Part shown: piece after piece, positions 31,126 through 64,000 of the stretch
How the letters are laid out: every line of letters starts with the position of its first letter
How positions within the stretch are numbered: the stretch's first letter is position 1
From: Chloroflexota bacterium
GTDB taxonomy: Bacteria; Chloroflexota; Anaerolineae; Aggregatilineales; Phototrophicaceae
Length of the DNA: 64,000 nucleotides
Direction: 5' to 3'
NCBI GenBank assembly: GCA_009840575.1
Contig: VXNO01000017.1
Location: forward strand, 7,497-71,496
Translations under genes and position numbers: made by a program
Notes under the pieces: generated by a model
What the model saw: only the letters and a program-made list of their open reading frames with translations
Told to the model about the DNA's origin: nothing
Database searches by the model: none

Positions 31126-31189
31126 GGTGGAGTTTACTCTGCGTTTTTTTGGATGGACAGCGAACATTCTAATTGCAGGATTGCCCGCC

Positions 31190-31228: not shown

Positions 31229-31243
31229 GCCCGCTATACGAGT

Positions 31244-31969
31244 ATGAGCGTCCTGATGCCTGCAACCGACCTGGCGAGCGCTGTCGTTGCTGCCCTGCAA
31301 CCAGCCGCCGACAATCCGCCAGCCGCGCGGAACCTGCCCCTGGCGAAGTGCCTGCGCGCCAAGATCATCGGTCTGCTGCTGCGCAAGACGCGGTTGGCTG
31401 CCGAATGCACTTCCACAGCCTGCGCTGAGTTCTTGCAGGTCCCGCCAGCGCGCTACGTGGCTTGGGAACATGGCGAAGCAGTCCCCAGCCTGCCTGAGCT
31501 TGAGTTGCTCGCCGGCTTCCTGCAAGGAGCGCCAACTCCGCGCCAACAAAGCGACTACCGCTTGCTGCGCCAGCGCATCATCGGCGCGCAACTGCAAATG
31601 GCTCGTCAAGCGTCTGGTGAAGCTGCTGCGCGCAGCATAGTCCCGCCCGAGACGCTGCGAGCATACGAACTAGGCGAGCGCAGCATCCCGATGACAAATC
31701 TCAGCGCGCTGGCTCAAGCTTTTGGCATCAAGCTAAGCGCTTTCCTGAAAACCACCCCAACAAACAGTAGCGCCGCGCAAGCAACCGATGGCAACGCAGC
31801 GACCTTGCCTGGCTTCGCTGCCAATCGACAGAACGCCGCTTATATCCGCCTGGCGATGGCGTTTCGTCACATCCAGGCGGAGGACTTGAATCATATCGCC
31901 GATGCGCTCTTCGCCATCATCAAGGAGCGCGCCCAAGGCGACATCGCCGAGCCCAATGCCGCGTCTTGA
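31244..31969 (+). CDS. XRE-family transcriptional regulator with two tandem HTH units
   Basis: Start taken at MSVLMPATD.. (31244). The longer ORF-track N-terminus is antisense to the methyltransferase. The two XRE-like units are ..AEFLQVPPARYVAWEHGEAVPSLPELELLAGFL.. and ..RSIVPPETLRAYELGERSIPMTNLSALAQAFGIKLSAFL.. Confidence 0.7.
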   Translation: MSVLMPATDLASAVVAALQPAADNPPAARNLPLAKCLRAKIIGLLLRKTRLAAECTSTACAEFLQVPPARYVAWEHGEAVPSLPELELLAGFLQGAPTPRQQSDYRLLRQRIIGAQLQMARQASGEAAARSIVPPETLRAYELGERSIPMTNLSALAQAFGIKLSAFLKTTPTNSSAAQATDGNAATLPGFAANRQNAAYIRLAMAFRHIQAEDLNHIADALFAIIKERAQGDIAEPNAAS

Positions 31970-34379: not shown

Positions 34380-34451
34380 ATCGCTTATACTGCTTTTCGC
34401 CAGACTCGGGTAGACTTGAAGCTGCGCAGGCGTCATCATCAGAGGCAAGTA

Positions 34452-36245: not shown

Positions 36246-36247
36246 GC

Positions 36248-38068: not shown

Positions 38069-38069
38069 T

Positions 38070-45916: not shown

Positions 45917-45932
45917 GCGATTTTTCACAGAA

Positions 45933-46568
45933 CTACTCAGCGGGCGCTGCGTCTGCGGTTTCTTCGCCCTCGAGTTCGCCGTCTTCTTCATCCAGCTCCG
46001 CATCAGCGCGAGCGGCGGCCGGCTGAACGATCTTCGCCAGCATTTCGTTGGAGTCATTGTGCACGGTGACATTCTCGCCGAAGCGGAGATCGCCCACCAG
46101 CACTTCCGCGCCCAATTCGGTCAGTTGCGTCAGGTCGATGACGATGCGGTTGCGGATATCGCTGGGGAAGACCTCCAACGTCAGCGAGCTGCGACCGGTG
46201 ATGAGGATGCCTTCGCGCGCGGCAACCACCGGGCTGCTGCCCTTCATGACGATGGGCACTTCCACCGAGATGCGCTGGGATTGGTCGACAGCCAGGAAGT
46301 CGACATGCAGGATATCGCCGCGCACGACATCGCGCTGCACCTCACGCGCCAGCGATGGATACACCGCCCCTTCGACTTCAATGTCGATCAGGTTGGTGCC
46401 ACCGGCTTCCATCAGCATGACTTCAACCGCGCGGTAGGGAAATTGCACGCTGAGCGGCTCGATTGATGGTCCATATAGGATGCCTGGCACAAAGCCATCC
46501 CGCCGCAACTGGCGATTTTTCTTGCCGTGCGCCCGGCGCTTTTGGGCGGCAAGCTGAAAGTCGGACAT
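45933..46568 (-). CDS. rplY: 50S ribosomal protein L25, Ctc-form
   Basis: ..AAQKRRAHGKKNRQLRRDGFVPGILYG.. N-terminus, two-domain length (211 aa), acidic C-terminal tail. Confidence 0.9.
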   Translation of the reverse strand: MSDFQLAAQKRRAHGKKNRQLRRDGFVPGILYGPSIEPLSVQFPYRAVEVMLMEAGGTNLIDIEVEGAVYPSLAREVQRDVVRGDILHVDFLAVDQSQRISVEVPIVMKGSSPVVAAREGILITGRSSLTLEVFPSDIRNRIVIDLTQLTELGAEVLVGDLRFGENVTVHNDSNEMLAKIVQPAAARADAELDEEDGELEGEETADAAPAE

Positions 46569-46635
46569 AGCAATACGCTCCTATGCGCGCGGAAGGCAGC
46601 GCGCACCCTGCTCTTATAAAGAATGCTTCACGCCC

Positions 46636-46664
46636 ATGCTATTGCCCGGTTGCGCGCAAGTCAA
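46636..46664 (-). promoter_or_regulatory. Putative sigma-70 promoter of rplY
   Basis: Minus strand TTGACT (complement of 46659-46664), 17 nt, TAGCAT (complement of 46636-46641). The leader of about 60 nt contains a GCGCGC-N8-GCGCGC hairpin. Confidence 0.45.
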
Positions 46665-46703
46665 TAGGCGAACAGGCACAAGGCTTGGAAATAATCCCTT
46701 TAT

Positions 46704-46776
46704 AGCGGGCAACGGGACTCGAACCCGTGACCTACTGCTTGGGAAGCAGTTGCTCTACCGACTGAGCTATACCCGC
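46704..46776 (-). tRNA. tRNA-Gly (anticodon CCC)
   Basis: Hand-folded from the reverse complement GCGGGTATAGCTCAGTCGGTAGAGCAACTGCTTCCCAAGCAGTAGGTCACGGGTTCGAGTCCCGTTGCCCGCT. Acceptor has 7 bp (one G-U). Anticodon stem ACTGC/GCAGT with loop TTCCCAA. T-arm ACGGG-TTCGAGT-CCCGT. Confidence 0.9.
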
Positions 46777-46787
46777 GCTGTCCAGGT

Positions 46788-46816
46788 AGTGTAGAGTTCG
46801 TCTGCGCCCGTGTCAA
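46788..46816 (-). promoter_or_regulatory. Putative sigma-70 promoter of tRNA-Gly
   Basis: Minus strand TTGACA (complement of 46811-46816), 17 nt, TACACT (complement of 46788-46793). The tRNA 5' end is 12 nt downstream. Confidence 0.55.
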
Positions 46817-46848
46817 GCGGCTGTGGCAGGGCAATCGCTTAAAAATTA

Positions 46849-46883
46849 ATTCACCACAGAGGCGCAGAAGACACAGGGATTTG
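46849..46883 (+). repeat. Short dispersed repeat (ATTCACCACA + degenerate CACAGAGG-like units), copy 2
   Basis: attcaccacagaggcgcagaagacacagggatttg. Same length and ends as 8663-8697. Confidence 0.5.
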
Positions 46884-47088
46884 GTGTAAGAGACAGGCGG
46901 TGACTCGCCCGTCCCCCCCTCCGACAAGTCAGGGAGAAGCAAAGTACGCGCGCAGATTCTGGATTTATCTGGCGAAGGGTTTATCAGGTTGCCGTTACAG
47001 TCAACAATTTCGCGTGGATCCACAACGTAAATCTTTATTTTCCTATCGGTGTACTCCTTAAACTCGGCGCGCTCGATGGTGAAAAGAT

Positions 47089-47116
47089 TTGGCGCGCTTG
47101 CCGATTGTGATACAAT
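47089..47116 (+). promoter_or_regulatory. Putative extended -10 promoter of the GT4 / giant-membrane-protein array
   Basis: TTGGCG (47089-47094), 16 nt ending in TGa, TACAAT (47111-47116). The ATG of the GT4 gene is at 47138. Confidence 0.45.
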
Positions 47117-47137
47117 GCACGGCTGCGTCCAGCAACG

Positions 47138-48337
47138 ATGGGAAGCAAAATGGCAACAGCCGGGCAGGCTGCTGGCGGCGAGCGGCGCAAGCTCAAGATC
47201 TTGATGCTGCTGCTCTATTATCATCCGCATTCCACTGGTTTGACCAATTATGTGCGCATGCTGGCGGAGGCGCTGGCGCGGCGCGGGCACGAGGTCACCG
47301 TCGTGGCTTCGCAGCATACAAAGGCGCTGCCGCGTGGCGAGTCCATGCTGAATGGCGTGCGGGTTGTGCGTTTGTGGGCACCCCTGCGCATCAGCCGCGG
47401 CTTCATCCTGCCCACCTATCCCTGGCAGGTGTACAGTCTCATCCGCCAGCACGATATCGTCAACATCCACATCCCGCTGCTAGAGACGGCGCTAGTGGCA
47501 TTCCTGGCGGGCTTGGCTGGCGTCAAGCTCATCGCCACCCACCACGGCGACTTAATCTTGCCAGCCGGGCGCTTCAATCGTTTCGTCACCCGGTCTATGT
47601 TCGCCATGTACAAGCTGATGGCGCGGCGCAGCGCCTGTTTGGTTGGTTACAGCGATGACTATGCGGATAACTCCTATTACTTAAAGCCCTTCCGCGATCA
47701 AGTGCGCGTCATCTATCCGCCTGTGCAGATTCCAGTCCCCGACCAGGAAAAAGCCAAGCAGTGGCGCGCCCGCTGGCAGCAGGATGGGGGGGCAATCATC
47801 GGCTTCTCGGGGCGCTTTGTGCAGGAAAAACGACCCGACCTGCTCATCCGCGCGCTGGAGATCATCAACAAGCGCTATCCGCAGGCGCGCATCGTCTTCG
47901 CTGGCGAATACGACATTCCCTACGAAGGCACCTGGCAGCGGCATTCGGCCTTGGTCGACAAGTATCGAGAGCAACTGATCTTCCTGGGGCTGCTGCGCGA
48001 CCCGCAAGAACTGGCCAACTTTTACGCAGCCTGCGATGTGCTGGCGCTGCCCAGCGACAGTGATTGTTTTGCCTTGGTGCAGGTCGAAGCCATGCTCTGC
48101 GGCACGCCCGTGGTCATGACAGACATCCCCGGCGGCCGCGTGCCCGTGCAAGTTACTGGCATGGGCGCGCTGGCGCAGGCAGGTGATGCCATCTCGTTTG
48201 GCGAGGCTGTGCTGGCTGTGCTGGCTGACCGCGCCAAGTATAGCAAGCCGCGTGCCGAAATCGCGCGGGTTTTTTCATTCGACAAAACCTTGCGGGAATA
48301 CGAGCAAATGTTCCTGCAGCATGCGCGCAAACGATAG
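47138..48337 (+). CDS. GT4-family (GT-B fold) glycosyltransferase
   Basis: ..LKILMLLLYYHPHSTGLTNYV.. N-terminal domain. C-terminal ..RFVQEKRPDLL.. and ..ALPSDSDCFALVQVEAMLCGTPVV.. are the Glycos_transf_1 motif. Confidence 0.85.
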   Translation: MGSKMATAGQAAGGERRKLKILMLLLYYHPHSTGLTNYVRMLAEALARRGHEVTVVASQHTKALPRGESMLNGVRVVRLWAPLRISRGFILPTYPWQVYSLIRQHDIVNIHIPLLETALVAFLAGLAGVKLIATHHGDLILPAGRFNRFVTRSMFAMYKLMARRSACLVGYSDDYADNSYYLKPFRDQVRVIYPPVQIPVPDQEKAKQWRARWQQDGGAIIGFSGRFVQEKRPDLLIRALEIINKRYPQARIVFAGEYDIPYEGTWQRHSALVDKYREQLIFLGLLRDPQELANFYAACDVLALPSDSDCFALVQVEAMLCGTPVVMTDIPGGRVPVQVTGMGALAQAGDAISFGEAVLAVLADRAKYSKPRAEIARVFSFDKTLREYEQMFLQHARKR

Positions 48338-48454
48338 AAAATAGCAAGGGTTAGTCGCTACAATAGACGCAATCAATATGAGCTCGCGCGAAAATAGCCC
48401 AAGGCAGTCGCTGCGCAGCGGACGATCAACCGCATATATGGATGAGACAGACAA

Positions 48455-51109
48455 GTGACCGACGACCCAGCTCAGCTTGGCAACACCGAATCTACAGCGG
48501 ATGCCAACCTGGAAAAGTCGCTGGAAGACTTGACGGTTGCCCAGCTACTCGGCTTGTTAATCAGGAAGCCGATGGCGACCAAGCGCCGTTTTCAGCCTGC
48601 GGCAGCCGCACCTGCCCTGCTGAGCGAAGCCGCTACATCGCCGCCAAGCTCAACGCAAGCGGCGGGCTTGGCGGGCGACTGGCAACGCAGAGCAGGCCGG
48701 CTCTTGCAGGAGAAGCATTTACAGTTGCTTCTCTACCTTGCCGCCCTGTTGTTTGCCTATATCGGCAGTGTCTACGGGCGGGGCAGCCCGGAGATCTCCC
48801 GCGCGAATTATTATTCGATGGAAGTCGCCGCGCCTTACCTGTGGGCGGGCTTTCTGCTGTGGCTGCTGGCGGAGCTGGTCGGCAACTGGCAAGCGCTACG
48901 CACTGGCTGGCGCAGGCTCGACGCCGCCGACCGTTGGCGCTGGCTGGCGCGGATTGCCCCGGCGCTGATTTGGGTCAACGCCGTCTTTATGCTAGGCACA
49001 TCCCTTAACGCGCCCACGGACGAATCAGTGCCAATGGCAGCCGTTGCCCTCCTGCGCATGGCAATCGGCGGAGTCGCCTGGCTGGGCATCAATCTGATGT
49101 TTCGATTTTTTCGGGGGCGTCAGCCGCCGCTGAATCCAGGCGAAGCAGTGGATGATCCGCCACTGATCCACCAACGCCAGCCGCTGCGACTGCCGATATG
49201 GCGCGATATCAGCCCATTGCGCGCGGTGACCTTCGGCATCGCTTGCCTTTGCAGCCTGCATGTATGGGAGGACTCGACCGGCAACTACATCCCGTTGAAC
49301 ACGATACAAGTCTGGTTTGTCGCGGCTTTGCTGTGGTGCTGCGTCTTTGCGCCGCTGCGCTGGAACATCTTTGATTCCGCCAGCAAGACAATTGACCATT
49401 GGCGGCGCATCCGCTGGCGGAACTATCGCGGCGTGATAATCGCCTTCGCCCTGCTGATGCTGCTCGGTTTCAGCTTCCGTTACGACATGCTGGATCAACA
49501 TCCGCGCTATCTATACGGCGACCTGGTCGAGAAAATCCAGGACGCGCACAAGATTTATTACCATGACGATTATCGCATCTTCATGGAAAACATCGGCGGT
49601 CGCGAACCGCTGCACTTTTACCTGCTGTCTGTCTTGGCCAGTCAGGAAGGCATGAACTTCGACCACTTCGCGCTCAAAAGCATGACAGCGTTGTGGTCGA
49701 TATTGGCGCTGCCGCTGATGTTCTGGCTTGCCGTGGAAGCCTTTTATGGCTTAAAGCGCGATCGCCGGTGGTCGCTGATTGTGGGCTTAGCAATGCTGGG
49801 CTTGGTGGCGGGCAGCTTTTGGCATGTGATGCTGGGCAGACAGGGTTTGCGCACGGGCGTGACATCGTTCTGGACGCCAGCCATCATGATTTTCTTCGTG
49901 AGGGCGCTGCGCAGCAACCGCCGCGTTAACTTTATATTGGCAGGCCTTTGTCTGGGCTTCGGCTTAATCAGCTACCAAGCCATGCGCATGATGCCCGCTT
50001 CAATTGTAGCTGGGGTCTTGACCGCCCTGCTGGTACGCCGCTATTCCTGGCGGGAGCGCGCCAGCTATTTGCTGAACCTGGCTGTGCTGGCTACCGTCGC
50101 TTTCACTGTCTTTATGCCGATTATGCGCTATTGGACGGAATATCCGGAAGACTATATGCGGCGTACCAGCACGCGCATATTCGGGGACATGCCCACCTCG
50201 CCCGAGGAGCGCACAGAATTTTTGCTGGAGAACGGCGCGCGGCTCTTGAAGAACTGGCACGACCAATTGTTGATGGTTCACTATAATGGCGAAGCCACAT
50301 TCATCAGCAGCGCGCCCGACAAACCACATTTTGACCCACTGGTCGCCGCCCTCATCACTTTGGGCGTCGCCGCCTGGATTGCGCTGATGGCGAAGACGCG
50401 CGACCAATTCGTCTGGTATATGCCGGCATTTCTGTTTTTTGCGATGCTGCCGTCGGCGCTTGCCCTTTCCTTTTCTATCGAAGTACCCAGCCTCACCCGC
50501 GGCAACACCGCCATCACGCCGCTTTATCTCATCGCCGCGCTGCCGCTGGCTTTGATATGCCGCCAAATTTATCGCTGCCTGCCCAAGCGGCTGGGCTGGC
50601 TGGCGGGCGTCGGCTTCGGCGCGCTGGTTATCCTGGCATCCAACGAATACAACGCCGACTATTACTTCGGCTATTTCACCGACAACTTCAACGCCTCATC
50701 GCACCCATATGTCGAGGTCGGCAATGTGCTGCGCGGCTTTGTGGAAAGCGACGGCGCTTTTGGCAATGCCTTCGTGGTGGCGATTCCCCATTGGCTGGAC
50801 CACCGAGCGGTTGGCATTGAAGCGGGCGTCATGTACTTCGACAATGGCGGATTCATCAACAACATTCCTTGGCTCATACGTCGCAATTTCCTCAGCCCGG
50901 GCTCGTGGACTCTCGTTCCGCAGCGCGATTTGCTCTTTATTTATGCCAATGCCGACCTGGAAACGCCGCAAGTGCTCGCGGAGTGGTTCCCACAAGGCAG
51001 GAGTCTCTTCATAGAAGCGCATCACCCTAACCGCGGCTTCTATATCTACCGCGTGCCCGCTCTGGGGGCGCAGGGCATAAACGACTTCATCGATCAATAC
51101 GCATCATGA
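48455..51109 (+). CDS. Giant polytopic membrane protein, GT-C-like (ArnT/PMT-like core with N-terminal TM extension)
   Basis: 884 aa, GTG start, more than 12 hydrophobic segments. The core ..GGREPLHFYLLSVLAS...ALKSMTALWSILALPLMFWL.. resembles ArnT/PMT_2 proteins. Confidence 0.5.
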   Translation: MTDDPAQLGNTESTADANLEKSLEDLTVAQLLGLLIRKPMATKRRFQPAAAAPALLSEAATSPPSSTQAAGLAGDWQRRAGRLLQEKHLQLLLYLAALLFAYIGSVYGRGSPEISRANYYSMEVAAPYLWAGFLLWLLAELVGNWQALRTGWRRLDAADRWRWLARIAPALIWVNAVFMLGTSLNAPTDESVPMAAVALLRMAIGGVAWLGINLMFRFFRGRQPPLNPGEAVDDPPLIHQRQPLRLPIWRDISPLRAVTFGIACLCSLHVWEDSTGNYIPLNTIQVWFVAALLWCCVFAPLRWNIFDSASKTIDHWRRIRWRNYRGVIIAFALLMLLGFSFRYDMLDQHPRYLYGDLVEKIQDAHKIYYHDDYRIFMENIGGREPLHFYLLSVLASQEGMNFDHFALKSMTALWSILALPLMFWLAVEAFYGLKRDRRWSLIVGLAMLGLVAGSFWHVMLGRQGLRTGVTSFWTPAIMIFFVRALRSNRRVNFILAGLCLGFGLISYQAMRMMPASIVAGVLTALLVRRYSWRERASYLLNLAVLATVAFTVFMPIMRYWTEYPEDYMRRTSTRIFGDMPTSPEERTEFLLENGARLLKNWHDQLLMVHYNGEATFISSAPDKPHFDPLVAALITLGVAAWIALMAKTRDQFVWYMPAFLFFAMLPSALALSFSIEVPSLTRGNTAITPLYLIAALPLALICRQIYRCLPKRLGWLAGVGFGALVILASNEYNADYYFGYFTDNFNASSHPYVEVGNVLRGFVESDGAFGNAFVVAIPHWLDHRAVGIEAGVMYFDNGGFINNIPWLIRRNFLSPGSWTLVPQRDLLFIYANADLETPQVLAEWFPQGRSLFIEAHHPNRGFYIYRVPALGAQGINDFIDQYAS

Positions 51110-54100
51110 CGCACTCGCCAGCGCATCAAGCAACCCGAACCGAGCAGCTTCTACCTGTTAGCCGCGCGCTCAGCCGGCGGGGTGTCATCATCAGCCTGCT
51201 GCTGCCGCTTGTCTTGATTTATGGCGTGGGGTTGCGCCTGGTGGGGCAGAATTGGGATGACTATTCACATACGCATCCTGATGAGATGTTCCTGACCTTG
51301 CTGACCTTGCCGCATTTGGGCGGCTCCAACAATTTCACGGTGGACGCGGTCAACTTCCCCCGTCAGCAGATTTTCGTACATACCCAGACGCCTGATATCC
51401 GCACGCACTATGACGTCCTTAATAAGGTCGCTGCATTGCGCTTGGGCGCAGTGGCGGGCAGTTTCGCGGCGGAGGCGGCGCATTGGCTGAGCAATGGCAA
51501 TGCGGTCGCCGAATACAGCGACATGACAGCCGCCCAGTCTGCGCTGCGCTCGCGGCAAGTGGATGTCTTGCTAGCAAGCGTCACGTGGTCGATCAGCGAG
51601 CCGGAAATTGTGGCGGGGGGTGTGATCGAATCAGTCGACCTGCAAGACCTGTATTGCCGCTACCACAGCCCCGGCAGCGATGGTATCGGCGGTTATTTTG
51701 ATACGCGCTGCTCGCCGCTCAACCCGCACAATGCAACGCAGCCATTTTTTGTTTATGGGACATTGCCGATTTTCCTGGCGCATTTTGGCAGCGAGATGCT
51801 GCGCGCCGGCACCGAAGCGGGCTGGCTCTTCTTCGACTTTCAAGCGCCGCATTTGGTTTGGCGCGGCATCAGCATGGTCTTTGATTGTTTGTCGATTCTG
51901 GTGGTATTTCTCTTGGGTCGGCGCGCGCATGATTCGCGGGTGGGTTTGCTGGCGGCGCTGTTGTACGCGTCTTCTCCGTTGGCGATCCAGCTGGCGCATT
52001 TTGGCACAGTCAATTCCATCGCTTGTTTCTGGGTATGCCTGGCGCTGTATTTCGCGGTGGCTGCCCAGCAGCATGGCAAGCGCGGCGCGTACTGGTGGTT
52101 CGGCATCGCCTGTGGCGCGGCGGTGGCCAGCCGCATCAACCTGGCACCACTGGCTGGCATCATCGTGCTGGCGGCTGCGGTGCAGGTATTGCCGGCGCTA
52201 GGCCCGACACTGGGCAGCAGGCTGCGCCGGCACCTCATCTTGCACACTGTCGGCGGGTTGCTGCTGGCGGGCGTGGCGGCTTTTCTGGCTTTTCGCATCT
52301 TGAACCCTTATGCCTTCGCCGGTCCTGGTTTCTTGAACATCCTGCCCAATGACCGCTGGCTGGAGAATATGCAGCGGGTCAGCGCGACTGTCTCCAGCCC
52401 GCAAGAGTTCCCGCCCAACTGGCAGTGGCTGGCGAAGTCTTCGGTTGTGCATCCAGCCAAAGACATGTTGTTTTGGGGCATGGGTCTCAGCTTCGGCTTG
52501 CTGGGCTGGTTTGGCTGGGGCTGGGCGGCGCTGCGGCTGCTCAACCTGGGGGCGGGCGCGACTCGTCACCTGCTGCTTCTGGTCTGGGTGGGCGGCTACA
52601 CGGTCTGGATGGCGCGGCTCTTCGCCATGACGATCCGCTATTACCTGCCGCTCTATGGCGCGCTGGCTGTCCTGGCGGGTTGGTGCCTGGTTGAATTGTG
52701 GCGGCGCGCGCAACAATCCGAACGGAGTCCGCCGATTGCCGCGGGGCTGCTGCTGTGTTTTGGCGGCTTCCTGACTGTCGTCGGCTTGGCTCATGCGCTG
52801 GGCGTGACAGCCGACGCCACCGCCATTACAGCTATCCTGATGGGCTTGGCTCTGTTAGCAGCTGCGATTGCGCCGGGCTTTCGGCGTGGGCGCGTCATCG
52901 TGCTGGGCGGATTCGCGCTGGGTTTCGCATGCCTTTGGGGATTGATGAGCGCGGGCAGATACCAGCATCAGACGACGCTCGTGCAGGGCTCGCGCTACCT
53001 GTTTGAGCAGGTGCCGGGCGACTTTGCCATGCGCGTAGATGGCGCAGGCAGCCATGCGCCGCTGATCAACATCGCTTTCCACAATAGCGGCATACCCCTG
53101 CCCGGCTTTGAAGACACGGCTTATCGTGGCGCAAACCACTATCGCGAAAACGAACCCAAACGTCAGTCCTTTATCGCGCCAGCCAGCGGCACAGTTTCAT
53201 CGGTATTTGCGCCGCATCTTTTCGACCTGCATGACGATAGCGAGCCAGAACACCTGGCGATTCGCCTCTACACGGGGGATGGCGCGACACTGCTGGCGGA
53301 TGCGAATCTGCGGGGGGATTTACCGCGCGATAGGCATCCGCTGGGTGATGCCTATGAAATCCCCTTTGCCAGCCAGGCCACAGTCAAGCAAGGCGAGCGC
53401 TATACATTCGAAGTCCTGGTGATGCCGGGCAGCGGCGATGTCGGCGGCTCTGGCTCAGTGGTGTTGGTAGAGGGGGCATGGGATAACCGCGTCACCGGCA
53501 TCCATACCTGCGAGCTGCCCGCGGGCATGAGCCTGGCGGATGATCTGCCGGCGGGTTACTTCCGCCCCAACGAATGCCGCGGCACGCAAGCCTGGTATGG
53601 CTTGGTCAACTCGCTTGACCAGATCATGTCCTACCCGGTCGATGATCAAATCAAGCGCGACGACATCCTGCGCAGCCTTGAGCTAGGCGATTACCTGACC
53701 ATCGCCAGCAACCGCTTCTACGATCATCTGCGCCGCAACCTGAAGCGCTGGCCCCTATCGACCCTCTATTATGAGAAGCTATTTGCCGGCGAGCTGGGCT
53801 ACGAACTCATCCTGACCATAGACGAGCCCTTCGAATGGGGTCCCTGGCGCGTCTCCGACCAGCATCTGCCGACCTATGCCTCGCCCGTGTGGCTGGATGA
53901 GCTGGAAGCCGACGAAGCCTACCATGTTTATGACCATCCAGCCGTCTTCATCTTTCGCAAGCGCGACGACTATTCGCAGGCGCGGGTCGAAGCCGTTCTC
54001 AGCCAGGTATCCCTGCGGCAATATCATCAATTGCAGCCAGGCGCAGAAGTAGCGCAAGACCTGGGCGTGTTTTACTGGAATCTCGAAGAAGCCGAGCGAG

Positions 54101-57012: not shown

Positions 57013-59714
57013 CTTTGCTGAGCGACTGGCTGGCGCGCGAAGGGCATGTTCTGCTGGGCTGGTGGCTGTGGATTAACCTGGCGGGCTTGGCTGCGCTGCC
57101 TTTGTGCTGGCGGCTGCTGGCTGGCTTGCCCGACCGCGGCTATACACTGGCGCGCGCCCTGGGACTGCTGCTGGTGGCGAGCTTGCATTGGCTGCTGGGC
57201 AGTTATGGCTTCCTGGACAACTCGGCGGGCAGCCTGGTCTTCTGCTGGCTGTTGATCCTCATGGGCGCGAGCCTGCTTTGCTGGCTGCTGCCGGGTAGTT
57301 TTTCCGTCCGAGCATGGTGGCGCGAACATAGAGCGCTGGTCCTGACCAGCGAATTGATCTTCGCCGCGTTATTCGTCGCCTGGGCGCTCTATCGCGCTTT
57401 TCAACCGGAATTGTACACAACCGAAAAACCTATGGAACTGGCTTTCATCAGCGCCAGCCAACGCAGCCTGAGCTTCCCCCCGGCTGACCCCTGGATGTCG
57501 GGTTACGCGATTAGTTATTACTACCTGGGCTATGTAATGTCCGCGGGGCTGGCTCTGCTCAATGGGTTGGGCAGCGCAATCGCCTTCACCTTGACCAATG
57601 CCAGCTTGGTCGCGCTGACGGGCGCTTGCGCCTTTGGGCTGGCTTACAACCTCGTGCGCTCGCGCGGGCGGAACGCGGCGATGCCCGGCAGCGCCTTGCT
57701 GACAGGCGGCTTGGCTATGGCGATGCTGACCTTGATGGGCAACTTCCAGTTCTTGCTGATCGAAGCGCCTTATCAAAGCCGCGCAGCGCCACCCGAATAC
57801 TTTGAATTTTGGGGGCTGCAACAGCGCAGCCAAGCCCCCGCCGAAGCCAGTGCGCTGAGCCTGGATACCAGCCGTTGGTCGCATTGGTGGTGGTTTCAAG
57901 CCAGCCGCGTGCTCAGCGACTACACCTTGGACGGCAACCTGACCGCATACCAGCCCATAGACGAATTTCCGGCGTTCAGTTTCGTGCTGGCGGACAACCA
58001 TCCCCATGTCCTGGCGCTGCCGTTCGTGGCGCTCATGATGGGCTTGATGCTGAATTTGCTGCTGCTGCGCCGGGGCGCAACTGGCTGGGAGGTGATTCTA
58101 TATGGCGTGGCGCTGGGTGGGCTGGCTTTCCTGAATGCCTGGGATAGCCCGATTTATCTGGCTGGCATGATCGGCGTCGAGGCGCTGCGCCGCTTGATGA
58201 GCAGCGAACGCGGCCGGCTGGAGCGCTACGATTGGCTGGGCTTGGCGCGCTTCGCCGTGAAGCTGGTCATCGTCGCTGTCTTGGCCTACCTGCCCTATTT
58301 TGTGGGTTTTCGCTCACAGGCGGGGGGCATCTTGCCTAACCTGGTCAACCCGACCTATTTTCCCCGTTTCTTCATTATGTTTGGTCCGTTCATCTTCATA
58401 CTAGGGGCTTATCTGCTGGTCGAAACCTGGCGCGGCAGGGGCGTTCGCTTCAACTGGCGCTTGGGCTGGCAGGTGGCGGCTGCGGTCTTGGGCATCAGCG
58501 CGGGGCTGCTGGCTTTGGCGGCGCTGGCGCAAGCGCAGGCGTATCCACAGGCGCTCTTCCCGGGCGTCGGCTCAACGACGGCCAGCACAGGAAGGGAATG
58601 GCTGAGCCTGGTCTGGGAGCGGCGGCTTTCGCACAGCGCCGTTTCGATCCTGCTGCTGCTGGGCATGGTACTTGTCCTGGCGCGCATTTTCCCCGCTCGG
58701 CATAACCCGCGCCACGATGCCTTTGTGGCGATTCGCTGGATAACTTATTCGCCAGCGAGCGGGTTTTGCCTGCTGCTGATCGCCATGGGTTTGGCGCTGG
58801 CTTTCGCGGTTGAGTTTTTCTTTCTCCGCGACAATTTTGGCGCGCGCCTCAATACGATCTTCAAGTTCTATTATCAGGCTTGGGCGCTGTGGAGCATCGC
58901 TGGCGCATACGCCATCTTCAGCATGACCCTGGATCGCGCAGACCCTAAGCCACATGGGCTAATCCGCTTGGGGATTTTGGGTTTGGCTCTTGCCAGTGTC
59001 GTCGCTGGCTGCGCCTATACGATTGCCGCCACGCATCACCGCGCCTGGATCGAAACCGGGCGGCAGCAGGCGCGGATTTCCGCGCGCTATGTCGCTCCGT
59101 CCGACTGGGAAGACAGCATCCGCCACGTCGCGGAGGGGGAGAGGGTATCGCCCGGGGCGCTGCTTTTTTCCCGCGCCGGCGGAGAAGCGGACGCTAGCGC
59201 CGAGACTGCGCTTTCGCTGCACGGTGGCATCACGTTGCTGGACGGAGATGCGCTGATCGTACAGAAGCCGCTTTCTTTGCGGGGTGACCTGGGCGGACTA
59301 AGTCGAGATGAGCAAGCCGTCATCGCTTGTTTGAGCGAGTTGGTCGGGCGCGGCGAAGCTGTCGTGGCCGAAGCGGCGCGGGATGCCTATGATATTCGCT
59401 ACGGGCGCGTCGGCAGTTTGGCGGGCATCCCCATCGTGTTGGGCTGGGAGAATCACCAACAGCAATGGCGCGGCGCTACTTACGATTCTATCGCTGGCAC
59501 GCGGCGCGATGACCTGCGCCAACTCTACACAGCCGCCGATTTCGCGGCGGTCGAAGCCAGCATAGCGCGGCAGGGCATCACGCATATACTCTACGGAAGC
59601 ACCGAACGCGCGCAGTATGGCAGCCTGGGCGAAGAGATTTTGCTAGCGCGGCTGCCAGTCGTCTGCGAAGCCGGCGAATCGCGTGTCTACGCGACCACCT
59701 TGGCGTCAACATGA
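57009..59714 (+). CDS. DUF2298 (chlor_Arch_YYY, TIGR03662-type) membrane protein
   Basis: ATGA overlap at 57009-57012; 901 aa. ..TEKPMELAFISA.., ..FPPADPWMSGYAISYYYLGYV.. (YYY at 57516-57524), ..DEFPAFSFVLADNHPHV.. and ..GWENHQQQWRG.. parallel the 1968-aa protein. Confidence 0.75.
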   Translation: MTLLSDWLAREGHVLLGWWLWINLAGLAALPLCWRLLAGLPDRGYTLARALGLLLVASLHWLLGSYGFLDNSAGSLVFCWLLILMGASLLCWLLPGSFSVRAWWREHRALVLTSELIFAALFVAWALYRAFQPELYTTEKPMELAFISASQRSLSFPPADPWMSGYAISYYYLGYVMSAGLALLNGLGSAIAFTLTNASLVALTGACAFGLAYNLVRSRGRNAAMPGSALLTGGLAMAMLTLMGNFQFLLIEAPYQSRAAPPEYFEFWGLQQRSQAPAEASALSLDTSRWSHWWWFQASRVLSDYTLDGNLTAYQPIDEFPAFSFVLADNHPHVLALPFVALMMGLMLNLLLLRRGATGWEVILYGVALGGLAFLNAWDSPIYLAGMIGVEALRRLMSSERGRLERYDWLGLARFAVKLVIVAVLAYLPYFVGFRSQAGGILPNLVNPTYFPRFFIMFGPFIFILGAYLLVETWRGRGVRFNWRLGWQVAAAVLGISAGLLALAALAQAQAYPQALFPGVGSTTASTGREWLSLVWERRLSHSAVSILLLLGMVLVLARIFPARHNPRHDAFVAIRWITYSPASGFCLLLIAMGLALAFAVEFFFLRDNFGARLNTIFKFYYQAWALWSIAGAYAIFSMTLDRADPKPHGLIRLGILGLALASVVAGCAYTIAATHHRAWIETGRQQARISARYVAPSDWEDSIRHVAEGERVSPGALLFSRAGGEADASAETALSLHGGITLLDGDALIVQKPLSLRGDLGGLSRDEQAVIACLSELVGRGEAVVAEAARDAYDIRYGRVGSLAGIPIVLGWENHQQQWRGATYDSIAGTRRDDLRQLYTAADFAAVEASIARQGITHILYGSTERAQYGSLGEEILLARLPVVCEAGESRVYATTLAST

Positions 59715-61744
59715 ATAGAGAGTTGGGCAGCTTGACAGCGACATCGCGGCTACAGGACTCGAGCGCGGCATCTGTACCGGCGAATGACAGCGGGCAGCGG
59801 GCTATTTCGGTCGAGTGGCTGGCTTACCTGTGCCTGGGGCTGCTGGGACTGTTGCTGCGCGTCGCCGAGCTGGGCAGCCTGCCTCTGAACGATGCCGAAG
59901 TTGGCAATGCCCTGCATGCCTGGCACAGCCTGGAAGACGCTGCGCCGGGCAGCGCCACCCCCGCCAACAGCCCGTTGACCTATATCAGTCAAATGCTCAG
60001 TTTCAGCCTGCTGGGCGCGAATGAGTTCAGCGCGCGCCTCCTGTCTATGCTGGCTGGCTGCGCCCTGACATTGACGCCGCTGCTCTTCCGCGAGCATCTG
60101 GGGCGAACGCGCGCTTTTGTGTGGGCGGCGCTGCTTTCCTTATTGGCAATCCCAATCGCCACTTCGCGCGCAGCCGATGGCAGCAGTTTTATGCTGCTTT
60201 TCGCGCTGCTGGCGGTTTGGATGGTGCGCCGTTACTGGTATTCACAGCGACTTTCGGACGCGCGCTGGGCATTTGCCTTGGTCACGCTGATGACACTGTT
60301 GTCCAGCCCATCCGGGCTTCCCTTGCTGATCATCATGCTGGCGGCGGGTTGGCTGGCGGTCTGGCGGACAGCCATCAGCGCTCCCCAGCGCCTCAACCTG
60401 CCCGGCGATGATATTTTGCAGCTGGCGATGCGCCGGTTGCGCGCCTTCCCGCTGGGGCAAACAGCGCTTGTGCCGCTTATGACAGTTGGCTTGGTGGCCA
60501 CAGGCTTCATGTTGAACCCCGCGGGGCTGCGCGCAGTCAGCCAGTTGCTCGCCGATGCCCTGGCTGGCTTCACACAGAGCGCGGGCATTGACGGCACACG
60601 GCTGGGGCTGGCGGCGCTGCTGGTATATGAGCCGCTGCTGATTGTCTTTGCTATGGGCGGTGCCTGGCTGCTGTGGCGGCAGGGCGCTGTAACTTATCTC
60701 GATCGCTTCGCCGCGGCCTGGGCGCTGATCGGCGCGCTTGGATTGCTGCTGTATCCCGGCGCGAAACCCGCCGATGCCATGTGGGTCGTGCTGCCGCTGA
60801 CCCTGCTGGCCAGCTATGGCATTGCCCAACTGATGGTCGACAGACGCGTGGTCATCTTGTGGGATACGGAAGATGACGCGGAGGGGGGCACCGGCGAGCT
60901 TGGTGGCGCTGAGTTGTACAGCACCGCCTATTGGTGGGTGAAGTGGTTAATCTGCGCGGTGGTATTGACATTGCTGTTAATCCTGTCTGTGCAATTCATG
61001 CAAGTGGCGCGGCTGATGCTGACGTTGCCAGCCGATGCTGGTTTGGGCGAGGCGCTGGGGCTGCTCGCGGATTCCAGTCAGCTACGCTTGCTACAAGCCT
61101 TGGGCATGTTGCTGCTGGCAGCGATTGTGATGATCGCTACCTGCCTGCTGCTGGCGAATTACTGGGGCACAGGCACTTGTTTGCAAGGCATTGGCTTGGG
61201 CTTTCTCGGTTTGATGCTGCTTTCGGGGCTGGGCGGCGGCTGGGGAATTGCCGCGGCTGACCCCGCTGAGCCGGATGGATTATGGCGTCAAAAGGCGCTC
61301 AGCCACGATGTGAAATTGCTGCAAGCTACCTTGCGTGAGCTAGCCATGCAGCAAAGCGGCGGCTTCCCCTATCTCGCTGTAACCATCGTCGAAGACAGCA
61401 ATAACGGCATCAGCGGCACAGGCAGGGTCGCCTGGCTGCTGCGCGATTATGTCCATGCCCGATTTGTGCCCAGCGCCTCACAAGCCAGTGGCGAGCCAGT
61501 CCTGCTGATCGCGGACGATGAATCGCAGGCGGCGCAGTTAAGCGGTGATTACGTCGGGCAGCGCTTCTTGCTGAGTCGCAGCTGGTCCTGGGCACAGCAG
61601 AGCCTCTGGGATCTACCCGCCTGGTGGACGCAGACGCGTCGTCGACCGGGAGGCGACCTGCGCGAAGCAGCGCTCATCCTCTGGCTGCGGCAGGATGTGT
61701 ATGCTGGCGCGCCGCCACGAGAAAGCAATTCTGTGGGATACTGA
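59711..61744 (+). CDS. Polytopic membrane protein, divergent TIGR03663/GT-C-like paralogue
   Basis: ATGA overlap at 59711-59714; 677 aa. The N-terminal region ..LLLRVAELGSLPLNDAEVGNALHAW...FSARLLSMLAGCALTLTPLLFR.. aligns loosely with the 63009 gene (..FSRFHMLGERVMSHDESLHTRYS...FSGRLYTATLGVLLVMFPLLWR..). Confidence 0.45.
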   Translation: MNRELGSLTATSRLQDSSAASVPANDSGQRAISVEWLAYLCLGLLGLLLRVAELGSLPLNDAEVGNALHAWHSLEDAAPGSATPANSPLTYISQMLSFSLLGANEFSARLLSMLAGCALTLTPLLFREHLGRTRAFVWAALLSLLAIPIATSRAADGSSFMLLFALLAVWMVRRYWYSQRLSDARWAFALVTLMTLLSSPSGLPLLIIMLAAGWLAVWRTAISAPQRLNLPGDDILQLAMRRLRAFPLGQTALVPLMTVGLVATGFMLNPAGLRAVSQLLADALAGFTQSAGIDGTRLGLAALLVYEPLLIVFAMGGAWLLWRQGAVTYLDRFAAAWALIGALGLLLYPGAKPADAMWVVLPLTLLASYGIAQLMVDRRVVILWDTEDDAEGGTGELGGAELYSTAYWWVKWLICAVVLTLLLILSVQFMQVARLMLTLPADAGLGEALGLLADSSQLRLLQALGMLLLAAIVMIATCLLLANYWGTGTCLQGIGLGFLGLMLLSGLGGGWGIAAADPAEPDGLWRQKALSHDVKLLQATLRELAMQQSGGFPYLAVTIVEDSNNGISGTGRVAWLLRDYVHARFVPSASQASGEPVLLIADDESQAAQLSGDYVGQRFLLSRSWSWAQQSLWDLPAWWTQTRRRPGGDLREAALILWLRQDVYAGAPPRESNSVGY

Positions 61745-61810
61745 GGAAAACGCCGCGATCTTGTGTAGAAACAGAAGTGCCAGCACAACAGTCAGCTTGA
61801 GGCTTCGACT

Positions 61811-62416
61811 ATGACCGTTCGCCGCGGACAGTACAATGCCAAGATTGACAATGCAATTGCGCGCGCCTTGCATGGCGATCAAAGCGCTTATGCCGCGCTC
61901 TATGACCAGTACGCAGCCGGTCTGTATCGACTCTGCTACAGCTTGCTGATGGATGAGCAAGACGCCGAAGACATTTTGCAGGAGTCCTTCTTGTACGCCT
62001 TCAAGAATCTGCATCGCTATGATTCACGCAAGGCGGCGCTCAAAACCTGGCTCTACACCATTGCCGTCAGCCGCTGCCGCAATACCTATCGGCGCAAACG
62101 GTTTCTGACCGTGGATATATCGCAATGGTTTGGCGCGGAGATAAAAGCCCCGGCGGCGGAAGCGCCGGAAGTCGCTCTCATGCGCCGCGATGCCAGCGAC
62201 TCGATCATGCGCGCGCTGGGAGAATTATCGCCCCGCCTGCGCGAAGCCATCGTGCTGCGCTATGGGCAAGGCATGACCTACCGCGAAATCGGCGAGGTCG
62301 TGGGCTGCCCACAGAAAACAGCCGAAAGCCGCGTGCGCCTGGGGCACCAACGATTGCGCCAATCGCTACAGACGGTCGGCATGGGTTTGCTCGAAGAATT
62401 GCTGCGTGTACATTGA
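61811..62416 (+). CDS. ECF-type RNA polymerase sigma-70 factor
   Basis: Region 2 ..DAEDILQESFLYAFKNLHRYD...TWLYTIAVSRCRN.. and region 4 ..LRYGQGMTYREIGEVVGCPQKTAESRVRLGHQRL.. Confidence 0.9.
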   Translation: MTVRRGQYNAKIDNAIARALHGDQSAYAALYDQYAAGLYRLCYSLLMDEQDAEDILQESFLYAFKNLHRYDSRKAALKTWLYTIAVSRCRNTYRRKRFLTVDISQWFGAEIKAPAAEAPEVALMRRDASDSIMRALGELSPRLREAIVLRYGQGMTYREIGEVVGCPQKTAESRVRLGHQRLRQSLQTVGMGLLEELLRVH

Positions 62417-62429
62417 GGTTATAATAAAA

Positions 62430-62960
62430 ATGTTGATTCGCTTCAAATACCAATACTGCAAGGTTCACATGGTGCGCTTCGTCGCCGGCGATTTGTCCGC
62501 TGCGGCGCGGCGGCGGGTCGCCCGATACATTGACGAATGCCCGGATTGCTACCGCGAGTATATGCGTCACCGCGCCTTCGACCAGAAGCTGTCGCACGGG
62601 CTGCCGGCACTGGGACGTCCCAGCAAGCGGCAACTGGATGGCATGTGGCTGGCGCTGCAAAGCGAGCTGTCCGCGCCGGAAAAGCCTGCCAAGAGCATAA
62701 GCGACTTTGCGCGCCGCAGCAGCCTGTCTTTCAGTTCTGGCGTGATCGCTTTGGCCATCTGCCTGGCGGCGCTCTTGCCGATTACGTTGGGCTACCACGC
62801 GTCGGTCGCCAACGTCGAGATGCGTCCGGGTCCGCAGTTGGTGTCTGTATCGCGCATGCCGACCGCGGGCAATTTCAATCGCTCGGCATGGCTTGCCGTG
62901 ACTCCGCCGCCGGCCAATGCCAGCCATCCGCAGCTGCAAAACACGCCCGAGCCGCGTTGA
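62430..62960 (+). CDS. Anti-sigma factor (zf-HC2 type) with one TM helix
   Basis: Start taken at MLIRFKY.. (62430), 14 nt after the sigma stop. ..H-x23-CPDC.. zinc-finger pattern (..KVHMVRF...YIDECPDCYREY..). TM segment ..GVIALAICLAALLPITLG.. Confidence 0.75.
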   Translation: MLIRFKYQYCKVHMVRFVAGDLSAAARRRVARYIDECPDCYREYMRHRAFDQKLSHGLPALGRPSKRQLDGMWLALQSELSAPEKPAKSISDFARRSSLSFSSGVIALAICLAALLPITLGYHASVANVEMRPGPQLVSVSRMPTAGNFNRSAWLAVTPPPANASHPQLQNTPEPR

Positions 62961-63008
62961 TGCGCGCCTGGCTAGCTTGTCCACTTCTGACGCGCAGGTC
63001 TATAGCCA

Positions 63009-64000
63009 ATGATTACAACACCCAATCAAATTGAAGATAATGTCCTCAGCCGCCTTTTGAGCCTGCGCCTGGAGGCAAACTGGTACCTCGCCGCTTGGAT
63101 TCTCATCTTCCTGCTGGCGCTGTTCAGCCGCTTCCACATGTTGGGCGAGCGCGTCATGAGCCACGACGAGAGCCTGCACACCCGCTATTCCTACAATTTG
63201 TATAATGATGGCAACTTCACGCATACGCCGCTGATGCACGGTCCCGTGCTCTTCCACGCCACCGCCCTGTCCTTCTATCTCTTCGGCGATAGCGACTTCA
63301 GCGGCCGCCTGTACACTGCCACGCTGGGCGTCTTGCTGGTGATGTTTCCCCTGCTGTGGCGGCGCTGGCTGGGGCGCTGGGGCTCGCTGCTGGCGGCGCT
63401 GCTGATTTTGATCTCGCCGCTGCTGCTCTATTATAGCCGCTACATCCGCCATGATATGCCGTCGATCTTTTTTGGCGTGGTCATGGTCTATTGCCTATTG
63501 AACTACCTGGATGGCGAGCCACAGGTCAGGCGGCGCGGTTATTGGCTCTATCTCTTCGCGGCGGCGATGATATTGAACCTGGGCTCAAAAGAAACCGCTT
63601 TCATTTACCTGGGCATTTTTGGCAGCTTCCTGGCGATTTTTTTCCTGGCGCGGCTGGCGCAGGCGCGCTGGAGCTGGCGCGGCAAAACGCTATTTCAGCA
63701 GATTATGTTAGGCATTTTGCTGGGCGGGGTGATGACATTGGGTATGTATATCGTCGTCGATATCATCCCGGCGCAAATCATCCCCGGTCGCGGCACAAGT
63801 TGGGAATTTTTGAGCGAATTGCAACGGTCGACATTTGCCGGCTGGATGGCGCTCGCAATCGGCAGCGGCGGATTTATTTTGGCAACAACCGCGCTATACG
63901 CCTTCCGGGATTCCTGGCGGCGCATCCCCTGGCGCGAGCTGGGCGGCATCTTTCTCATCGCGCTGCTGACCGCGGGCGGGCTGCTATTCATCGAGGAGCT
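63009..64000 (+). CDS. TIGR03663-type (Agl23-like) / GT-C-like polytopic membrane protein, N-terminal part; continues beyond window end
   Basis: Own translation from ATG 63009: MITTPNQIEDNVLSRLLSLRLEANWYLAAWILIFLLALFSRFHMLGERVMSHDESLHTRYSYNLYNDGNFTHTPLMHGPVLFHATALSFYLFGDSDFSGRLY... It is open to position 64000 and absent from the ORF track because it has no stop. Confidence 0.6.
   Translation, partial: MITTPNQIEDNVLSRLLSLRLEANWYLAAWILIFLLALFSRFHMLGERVMSHDESLHTRYSYNLYNDGNFTHTPLMHGPVLFHATALSFYLFGDSDFSGRLYTATLGVLLVMFPLLWRRWLGRWGSLLAALLILISPLLLYYSRYIRHDMPSIFFGVVMVYCLLNYLDGEPQVRRRGYWLYLFAAAMILNLGSKETAFIYLGIFGSFLAIFFLARLAQARWSWRGKTLFQQIMLGILLGGVMTLGMYIVVDIIPAQIIPGRGTSWEFLSELQRSTFAGWMALAIGSGGFILATTALYAFRDSWRRIPWRELGGIFLIALLTAGGLLFIEE

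Follow-up and report, generated by a model that had tools for sequence, protein, structure and literature searches.

Glycosyltransferases of the GT-C fold are found in several well-described systems. The PMT/PMT_2 superfamily (GT39/GT83-type) includes Pmt1/Pmt2, Pmt4 and ArnT-like enzymes, and STT3, AglB and PglB (GT66) are oligosaccharyltransferases (OSTs). In mycobacteria, the family 4 glycosyltransferases (GT4) PimA and PimB act alongside the GT-C enzymes PimE, Mpt, Emb and Aft, and a three-component arrangement consisting of a family 2 glycosyltransferase (GT2), a small flippase and a GT-C protein is seen in Gtr-like systems (PMC11127046). Agl23 of Haloarcula hispanica, when purified and placed in liposomes, is reported to translocate M5GN2-PP-Dol, and it is also reported to rescue yeast rft1-delta (PMC11182771, citing Lu et al. 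2020). Here, we describe a block of genes from a Chloroflexota bacterium of the Phototrophicaceae (contig VXNO01000017.1) that invites comparison with all of these. It begins at position 47138 of the 64,000-nucleotide stretch of DNA that was analysed (the window), runs off its 3' end and encodes a GT4 enzyme, five large membrane proteins and a sigma/anti-sigma pair of the extracytoplasmic function (ECF) type. We consider it likely that Anaerolineae-type Chloroflexota have in this block a conserved locus for envelope glycans, whose products form an extracytoplasmic machine using lipid-linked sugars.

According to profile comparison, the block contains four PMT_2-like modules and two modules of the DUF2298 family. 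The PMT_2-like modules resemble the PMT superfamily in their hidden Markov model (HMM) and profile matches, in an acidic motif after the first core transmembrane segment (TM1) and, for the 884 aa protein, in a fold match to Pmt4. Unlike PMTs, however, they have no MIR domain, they carry extra N-terminal transmembrane segments and other soluble domains (NHL repeats in orthologues of the last gene), and one of them is fused to DUF2298. The DUF2298 model matches STT3, AglB and PglB over the whole chain, and its C-terminal domain matches the globular domain of AglB, but DUF2298 proteins differ from OSTs in lacking a WWDYG or DK/MI motif and an STT3 Pfam match, in having three added N-terminal helices and in carrying a YYYxGY signature that OSTs do not have. 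The outer loop of the model, with QPIxE319 and a D-x-H-x-H at the start of the next helix, may be likened to external loop 5 (EL5) and the metal-binding motifs of OSTs. The truncated last gene of the block shares with Agl23 its TIGR03663 membership and its DE and HGP signatures; unlike Agl23, which serves archaeal N-/O-glycosylation with dolichol carriers, the proteins here are bacterial and orthologues of the last gene carry NHL repeats.

With the mycobacterial pathways the block shares a common logic, one cytoplasmic GT4 and several outside GT-C enzymes, and the structural matches of the block models include AftA, AftB and EmbA/B/C, with no sequence kinship beyond the fold. Unlike those pathways, the block is compact and class-wide, has an internal ECF sigma factor and has no decaprenyl-phosphate sugar genes nearby. 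The Gtr-like systems share the expected polyprenyl-phosphate monosaccharide donor, and clostridial DUF2298 genes stand beside GT2 genes of that kind (see below), but there is no GT2 or GtrA-like gene in the window or in the conserved Anaerolineae block, which has many GT-C modules rather than one. Since every component is a member of a known superfamily or shares the fold of one, the block does not represent a new category. Against the literature searched, the new elements are the fold of DUF2298 and its candidate active site (if Pfam already lists PF10060 in a GT-C clan, the fold is not new), together with the near-universal PMT_2-like::DUF2298 fusion, the conservation of the block across the sampled Anaerolineae-type lineages and the ECF promoter motif.

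The architecture of the Chloroflexota envelope is itself described variously, as monoderm or 'neoderm', with layered material of undefined chemistry (PMC13319060). A compact, conserved block of five or six GT-C modules, flanked throughout by housekeeping genes and equipped with its own envelope-type sigma factor, is a concrete candidate for the machinery behind these layers and behind the probable archaellin O-glycans mentioned below, and if it does make the undefined outer layer or surface glycans, it would provide the first molecular handle on the atypical Chloroflexota envelope.

Organisation and conservation of the block

All genes of the block lie on the plus strand. The first (47138-48337) encodes a 399 aa GT4 protein (395 aa from 47150 in public gene calls) of the cytoplasmic type, with a GT-B fold and an 89-bit match to Glycos_transf_1. 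It is followed by the gene for an 884 aa polytopic membrane protein with a PMT_2-like GT-C fold (48455-51109, GTG start) and by that for a 1968 aa PMT_2-like::DUF2298 fusion protein (51106-57012). Module 1 of the fusion, a PMT_2-like GT-C module supported by the PMT_2 HMM and a map of transmembrane segments, covers approximately aa 1-615 (51106-52950); a middle domain of ~418 aa (aa 616-1033; 52951-54204), non-membrane in the same map, separates it from module 2 (aa 1034-1968; 54205-57012), which is the DUF2298/TIGR03662 domain. A stand-alone 901 aa DUF2298/TIGR03662 protein (57009-59714) and a 677 aa PMT_2-like GT-C protein (59711-61744) are encoded next, followed by an ECF sigma factor of 201 aa (61811-62416) and a probable single-pass anti-sigma factor (62406-62960; 184 aa as the longest open reading frame (ORF), the true start probably lying further downstream). 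The last gene (63009-64000) is an open frame leaving the window that encodes the 5' part (330 aa) of a GT-C protein of the TIGR03663/Agl23 family.

The layout of the block and the lengths of its four complete large membrane proteins had been given by an earlier, sequence-only reading of the window; the ORF list (seven same-strand ORFs, followed by the open frame at 63009) agrees with it exactly, and translation confirms the YYY motifs that it had placed in two of the proteins (NYYYFGY at 54682-54702 and SYYYLGY at 57513-57533). A hydropathy scan of the large proteins predicts ~11-12 transmembrane segments in each of the 884, 901 and 677 aa proteins and ~25 in the 1968 aa protein, with a large non-membrane stretch after every membrane block. 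Translational coupling had been proposed from the ATGA stop/start overlaps at 51106, 57009 and 59711. The overlaps are real and might bring about such coupling, but they are mostly not kept in relatives: the junction between the fusion gene and the DUF2298 gene overlaps in 27 of 56 loci, by exactly 4 nt in 14 (a rough count, being based on longest-ORF starts), and the other overlaps are specific to this lineage.

To place the block in a wider context, we scanned one genome per GTDB species and found 589 DUF2298 loci, the best 80 of which were examined together with three metagenome loci (83 related loci in total) by phmmer comparison of the window proteins with the ORFs of each locus. The best 80 come from Chloroflexota-type metagenome-assembled genomes (MAGs) labelled Aggregatilineales, Phototrophicaceae, Anaerolineales, Caldilineales, Ardenticatenaceae and Thermoflexales, except for two with odd titles. 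These two (L028 and L049) are full Chloroflexota-type blocks filed under Pleurocapsa (a cyanobacterium) and Nitrosomonadaceae, and are probably mis-binned contigs. A protein annotated in a 'Chloroflexi bacterium' MAG is identical to the 884 aa protein. Loci identical to the window block are present on ENA metagenome scaffolds, whilst the nearest named genomes, judged by the DUF2298 protein, are Aggregatilineales and Phototrophicaceae MAGs at 51-57% identity.

Most of the 83 loci retain the same gene order, namely GT4, (methyltransferase), 884-like, fusion, DUF2298, 677-like, down to ~30% identity. In 56 of 61 loci, the gene immediately upstream of that for DUF2298 encodes the fusion; the 677-like gene lies downstream of the DUF2298 gene in 65 of 73, the 884-like gene upstream in 43 of 57 and the GT4 gene no more than 10 kb upstream in 34 of 43; for the sigma factor gene and the Agl23-family gene, a downstream position is seen in 28 and 36 of 59 loci, respectively. 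The PMT_2-like::DUF2298 fusion is found in nearly all loci. In the window, the 5' neighbours of the block are gyrA (43370-45916) and a minus-strand gene for ribosomal protein L25 (45933-46568); in distant relatives, the whole block sits between gyrA-L25 and nusA-infB, its 3' end lying before nusA-ylxR-infB.

Some relatives have additional genes that are absent from the window: a UbiE-type methyltransferase gene between the GT4 and 884-like genes (37 loci), a PF03706 ('LPG_synthase_TM') flippase-like gene directly 5' of the GT4 gene (nine loci) and an NAD-dependent sugar epimerase/dehydratase gene that joins the block (seven loci). The regions concerned can be compared in relative loci L091 (6967-10017) and L001 (475-1323) and at 46568-48455 in the window, where the gap between the GT4 and 884 aa genes is 118 nt. 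Two apparent rearrangements were discounted. In L029 (10811-15214), the DUF2298 and 677-like proteins are encoded by one 1468 aa ORF, which, if real, would be a second fusion joining both module classes; the GT4 gene of the same locus is in three pieces, however, so this is probably an assembly frameshift. In L087 (7844-13749), from another metagenome assembly of the same species, the 1968 aa gene is split into 507 and 1461 aa; the split arises because a single nucleotide is missing by comparison with the window (99.97% identity) and reflects an assembly error or a strain-level frameshift rather than a natural division.

The PMT_2-like modules

Family searches give the four PMT_2-like modules rather different scores. 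The 1968 aa protein matches PMT_2 (PF13231; gathering threshold 26.1 bits) with 39.7 bits over aa 251-359, the 677 aa protein barely exceeds the threshold (26.9 bits), and the 884 aa protein has no direct Pfam or NCBIfam match by hmmscan, although PF13231 is found in homologues at ~47% identity, to which NCBI gives the name GT39. Some of the proteins had been called TIGR03663-like. The last ORF passes the curated cut-off of that family (126.25 bits) with 163.9 bits, incomplete as it is, but the 677 aa protein scores only 61.6 bits, so it is better regarded as a TIGR03663-like paralogue than as a member; a motif scan finds neither HGP nor [H/F]DE in it. The identification of TIGR03663 as the Agl23-like family was right, the NCBIfam name being 'flippase activity-associated protein Agl23'.

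Profile comparison brings the modules together. Using hhalign with family profiles built from the ORFs of the 83 related loci, the 884 aa family matches the family of the fusion N-half with 97.5% probability and the 677 aa family with 96.7%, and the 677 aa and last-gene families match each other with 99.7%. Across the four families, the main pairs lie at 94-99.7%, two comparisons with the truncated last gene reaching ~50%. The 884 aa protein, the N-half of the fusion, the 677 aa protein and the last gene product are thus homologous to one another at the level of sequence profiles.

An AF2 model of the 884 aa protein, which has an N-terminal extension of ~320 aa, is of good quality (predicted local distance difference test (pLDDT) score 86.4 for the DUF2298 protein considered below and 86.6 here; predicted template modelling (pTM) score 0.84). 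When it is compared with the PDB by Foldseek, the 18 best matches are all GT-C enzymes, with Pmt4 at the top (E 2.4e-6) and STT3, ALG12, PglB, Pmt1/2, AftA, DPY19, AftB and EmbA/B/C also represented. Transporters appear among the matches of this model and of the DUF2298 model only at a probability of ~0.4 or less. For the 1968 and 677 aa proteins, the evidence for a GT-C fold comes from HMM matches and profile comparison; PDB sequence searches with the four large proteins returned nothing meaningful.

PMT enzymes carry a DE-type motif in loop 1, and every PMT_2-like module of the block keeps one or more acidic residues of that type directly after core TM1. In module 1 of the fusion, W50 is nearly invariant and H57-P58-D59-E60 follows TM1 in 58 of 59 orthologues; the 884 aa family has a conserved D356/E359/D363 cluster just after core TM1, and the 677 aa family has E63 after TM1 in 66 of 68 members. 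In the last-gene family, the SHDESLH and MHGP motifs are invariant. Orthologues of the last gene are mostly ~1250-1500 aa in length (full range ~1000-1770 aa), and the three that were examined (~1300-1370 aa) all have C-terminal NHL repeats together with PMT/PMT_2. The middle domain of the fusion protein, which is presumably extracytoplasmic, has no family match by hmmscan and is conserved in orthologues.

The DUF2298 proteins

The assignment of the 1968 and 901 aa proteins to TIGR03662 (PF10060, chlor_Arch_YYY, DUF2298) in the sequence-only reading holds: against a curated cut-off of 300.25 bits, the former scores 454.3 bits (aa 1034-1955) and the latter 381.3 bits (aa 13-896). The family, which its description places in Chloroflexi plus Archaea, is large: clustering at 50% identity leaves more than 6000 sequence clusters. 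For the 901 aa protein, the AF2 model (pTM 0.90) has, as its 12 best PDB matches by Foldseek, GT-C enzymes only (probability 0.98-1.00), including human STT3A, Archaeoglobus fulgidus AglB, DPY19, AftA, PglB and Pmt4. Its C-terminal domain separately matches the globular domains of AglB (3vu0 and 3vgp; target-normalised TM-scores 0.54 and 0.52). A safe statement based on these models is that DUF2298 has a GT-C fold with an OST-like overall build, which stops short of calling it an OST.

This likeness is structural only, as none of the sequence searches provides a link. A lax Pfam scan of 43 diverse DUF2298 members (25-54% identity) finds DUF2298 alone, with no match to STT3 (PF02516) at E values up to 1, a DUF2298 profile gives spurious matches only against PDB sequences, and sequence kinship to the 884 aa family was rejected (3.7% probability by hhalign). 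A WWDYG-like motif (WW[DE]xG) is absent from all proteins of the block.

Residue conservation across the same 43 sequences highlights a number of positions. The YYYxG motif contains one invariant residue, Y171, and three nearly invariant ones, Y170, Y172 and G174. Invariant polar residues elsewhere are E115, E139 (TEKPME), E319 (QPIxEF), H331, H333, R613 and K619, with D160 (FPPxDPW) and D329 found in 42 of the 43 sequences; the C-terminal domain adds invariant Y794, R821, R832 and E866, as well as W813 and H816, each of which occurs in 42 sequences. We predicted the topology on the secondary structure of the model by counting helices back from an outside C-terminal domain and applying the positive-inside rule. 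This gives a 13-helix transmembrane core starting from helix 100-131, after three extra N-terminal helices. The first outer loop, which like that of GT-C enzymes has two short helices, is predicted to contain E139, D160 and the YYY motif; E319 and D329-x-H331-x-H333 are placed in and after another outer loop that is long and of poor order (residues 242-331). On this model, the invariant Glu, Asp, His, Arg and Lys residues would be found in loops outside the membrane, and E139, D160, E319, D329-x-H331-x-H333, R613 and K619 are candidate active-site residues.

The sigma factor and its promoter

An ECF sigma/anti-sigma pair had been recognised from the sequence. The sigma factor is clear (103.6 bits to TIGR02937), but the anti-sigma assignment is weak (28.7 bits against a cut-off of 100). 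The second protein has a single predicted transmembrane segment (111-129), and its position after the sigma factor is kept in relatives. Together with a conserved motif before the sigma gene, the sigma match and the one-segment, weakly matching anti-sigma factor give the pair the composition of an ECF module. The motif, TGAGGAA-N15-GTGTA, was found by aligning the short gap 5' of the sigma gene across loci and was turned into a position weight matrix (PWM) using 35 instances in relatives. The window copy (ACTGAGGAA-N15-GTGTA; 61740-61773, plus strand) scores 31.7, whereas 20 shuffles reach 18.4 at most. In this copy, the -35 element shares sequence with the stop codon (TGA) of the 677 aa gene, and 44 nt separate the -10 element from the ATG of the sigma gene.

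Of the related loci, 21 have the motif 5' of the sigma gene; in 14-15 it stands before the giant fusion gene, at a distance of 36-97 nt. In relatives, this sharing connects the sigma factor with the GT-C genes. In the window, where the 884 and 1968 aa genes overlap, the site before the fusion gene is missing.

What might the block do?

The overall reading of the block as a multi-component, GT-C-like envelope glycosylation system is supported, having passed unrefuted through three computational tests: block proteins have significant family matches by hmmscan, the DUF2298 and 884 aa models resemble only GT-C enzymes rather than transporters, and the gene order is conserved. Around the folds, family memberships, gene order and promoter motif described above, we propose a working scheme with a putative donor, acceptor, order of steps, pairing of modules and mode of regulation. 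The cytoplasmic GT4 would make or prime a membrane-anchored sugar acceptor from a nucleotide sugar. Once this had been moved to the outer face, the six GT-C-fold modules (four PMT_2-like and two DUF2298, in five proteins) would act on it there, using polyprenyl-phosphate-linked sugars supplied by enzymes encoded elsewhere, to elongate or branch a glycan or transfer it onto an extracytoplasmic polymer, lipoglycan or surface protein. DUF2298 would be a GT-C-type transferase with an OST-like build: a 13-helix core, a long flexible outer loop with acidic and His residues and a C-terminal globular domain. The ECF sigma/anti-sigma pair within the block may autoregulate from the conserved promoter and probably co-drives the downstream Agl23-family gene, which would couple output to the state of the envelope. 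A more specific proposal, which we offer tentatively and regard as rather less than likely, is that DUF2298 is an unrecognised active GT-C family with an obligate PMT_2-like partner, to which it is joined in the ~2000 aa fusion protein, and that the ECF-controlled block makes the outer envelope layer or the surface-protein glycans of Anaerolineae- and Caldilineae-type Chloroflexota.

Several observations weigh against reading the block as a glycosylation system. As the sequence-only reading had correctly noted, no family match to a GT2, a phosphoglycosyltransferase or Wzx is found among the main window ORFs scanned (most non-overlapping ORFs of at least 180 aa and a few shorter ones). Copies of the ECF motif that exceed the shuffle level in the window occur before the sigma gene only, and none precedes a GT-C gene. 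Global TM-scores of the 901 and 884 aa models to solved GT-C structures are only moderate (0.3-0.5), and there is no sequence-level link from DUF2298 to a known GT-C family, hhalign giving 26% at most against the PMT_2-like profiles. The literature searched contains no biochemical data on any DUF2298 protein (DUF2298 occurs only as a gene label, in two papers, and TIGR03662/PF10060 not at all), and the sole characterised member of TIGR03663, Agl23, is reported as a flippase and not as a transferase (PMC11182771).

How the products of the block might be deployed can be framed in more than one way. In the first, which is a serious possibility although we would not call it probable, the block makes a lipoglycan or secondary wall polysaccharide: GT4 would prime a glycolipid on the inner face, which would be flipped and then extended outside by the series of GT-C enzymes, much as in the assembly of mycobacterial phosphatidylinositol mannosides (PIM), lipomannan (LM), lipoarabinomannan (LAM) and arabinogalactan. 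The full-length NCBIfam matches of GT4 are indeed synthases of glycolipids and small molecules (GlcNAc-phosphatidylglycerol synthase, E 2.9e-15; BshA), but all fall far below cut-off. Similarly, the PF03706 flippase-like gene before GT4 and the methyltransferase gene after it fit such a pathway in relatives, but both are absent from the window. Several non-identical GT-C modules in series are what stepwise extension would call for, and the structural matches include Aft and Emb enzymes, although homology to the mycobacterial enzymes goes no further than the fold. For the outer envelope layers of Chloroflexota, polysaccharide or protein has been proposed as the material (PMC13319060); no polymer has been described.

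Protein glycosylation is a second framing, and one that we find doubtful. Here, the PMT_2-like enzymes would O-glycosylate secreted or surface proteins in the manner of PMT/GT39, DUF2298 would transfer a lipid-linked glycan to protein as OSTs do, and the NHL propeller would bind the substrate. Pmt4 is the best structural match of the 884 aa protein, the PMT_2-like modules have DE-type motifs and NHL repeats occur in the last-gene orthologues, yet a set of five different GT-C proteins with a GT4, and with a methyltransferase and flippase-like gene in relatives, looks more like stepwise polymer assembly. For DUF2298, the best matches include STT3A, AglB and the AglB C-terminal domain, but there is no WWDYG-like motif or STT3 Pfam match, and Foldseek scores DPY19, AftA and OSTs about equally, which does not separate an OST from other GT-C enzymes. 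Also in favour of this framing, the archaellin of another member of the Chloroflexota, Litorilinea aerophila, shows probable O-glycans (PMC12488501).

That some or all of the large proteins are instead translocators or scaffolds for lipid-linked sugars, keeping the GT-C fold for lipid binding only, is improbable: Agl23 is reported to flip M5GN2-PP-Dol in proteoliposomes (PMC11182771) and the last window gene passes the TIGR03663 cut-off, but in vitro scramblase activity is compatible with transferase activity, the structural matches are to enzymes only, the proteins have large conserved extracytoplasmic domains and every module has invariant acidic and His residues at positions of the GT-C catalytic type.

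DUF2298 proteins outside the Chloroflexota

A glycosylation role for DUF2298 in the use of lipid-linked sugars can also be considered from its occurrence elsewhere. There is a large clade of DUF2298 proteins of ~750 aa in the Lachnospiraceae/Eubacteriales, including gut Lachnospiraceae, and in a Eubacteriales MAG a gene for a 236 aa GT2 ends 20 nt before the DUF2298 gene. A tblastn search of 72,556 plasmids gave a single DUF2298 match, on Pseudobutyrivibrio xylanivorans pNP95 (locus L084; 57636-76942 of the record). Here, DUF2298 is encoded within a polysaccharide cluster comprising wecB, epimerases, a DegT aminotransferase, two GT2 genes, a Glucos_trans GT-C gene and an O-antigen ligase gene, and the GT2 genes score best on the models for PgfS and ArnC, which are polyprenyl-phosphate sugar synthases. 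The presence of GT2 genes beside DUF2298 in Clostridia supports a lipid-linked sugar role outside the Chloroflexota.

In two gut Clostridia loci, genes for membrane proteins of 668 aa (L088, 6014-8020) and 574 aa (L090, 5557-7281) precede the DUF2298 gene. Neither protein matches Pfam, NCBIfam or the PMT_2-like profiles built here, and the two may represent a different partner family of DUF2298.

The GT4 gene and its 5' region

Since the L25 gene is on the minus strand at 45933-46568, the GT4 gene is preceded by a divergent intergenic gap of ~570 nt. The plus-strand ORF at 45879-46466 (195 aa, no family match) is probably spurious, as public gene calls put the minus-strand L25 gene there. An extended -10 promoter had been proposed at 47089-47116, and the element is present on the plus strand (TTGGCG-16-TACAAT with an upstream TG, 22-34 nt 5' of the GT4 start). 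Sigma-70-like sites of this kind are no more frequent than expected by chance, however (nine in 17.6 kb, compared with 5.4 +/- 2.2 in shuffles), and the site therefore carries no weight by itself. The 3' end of the GT4 gene contains a terminator-like GC hairpin with a T-run (48248-48268), and a second promoter-like site (48335-48364) is found within the gap before the 884 aa gene. In view of these two elements, GT4 may be transcribed separately from the membrane-protein genes.

Other features of the window

Further upstream are two genes that the sequence-only reading had recognised as GT-C-like, and family searches agree: the product of 31902-34379 weakly matches PMT (27 bits) and EpsG, and that of 38025-40688 matches PMT_2 (43 bits) and DUF2142. 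The sum of 19.3 kb given for all GT-C-like genes is arithmetically right, but counting these two into one machine with the block is unsupported, as they lie outside the widely conserved block. They flank a pair of genes for MsbA-type ATP-binding cassette (ABC) half-transporters (34416-36245 and 36248-38068), a possible exporter or flippase of lipid-linked glycans. As a candidate for the missing flippase of the block, the pair was rejected because synteny with the conserved block does not support it, and the upstream GT-C/ABC group as a whole (31902-40688) is kept only in very close relatives.

Two minus-strand ORFs of the window, 11162-13027 (621 aa) and 25416-26180 (254 aa), have no Pfam match at E 1e-4. 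The region 8780-31194 is devoted to carbohydrate utilisation, with four genes resembling glycoside hydrolase family 43 (GH43; 14605-15732, 23745-25091, 27764-30241 and others), a sulfatase gene (12966-14612), an Opp-type ABC transporter with its binding protein, a GntR regulator, dehydrogenases and a glucose-methanol-choline (GMC) oxidoreductase. At 30830-31969, a 379 aa protein with two XRE-type helix-turn-helix (HTH) domains is encoded, its gene overlapping the start of the longest ORF of the first upstream GT-C-like gene (31902).

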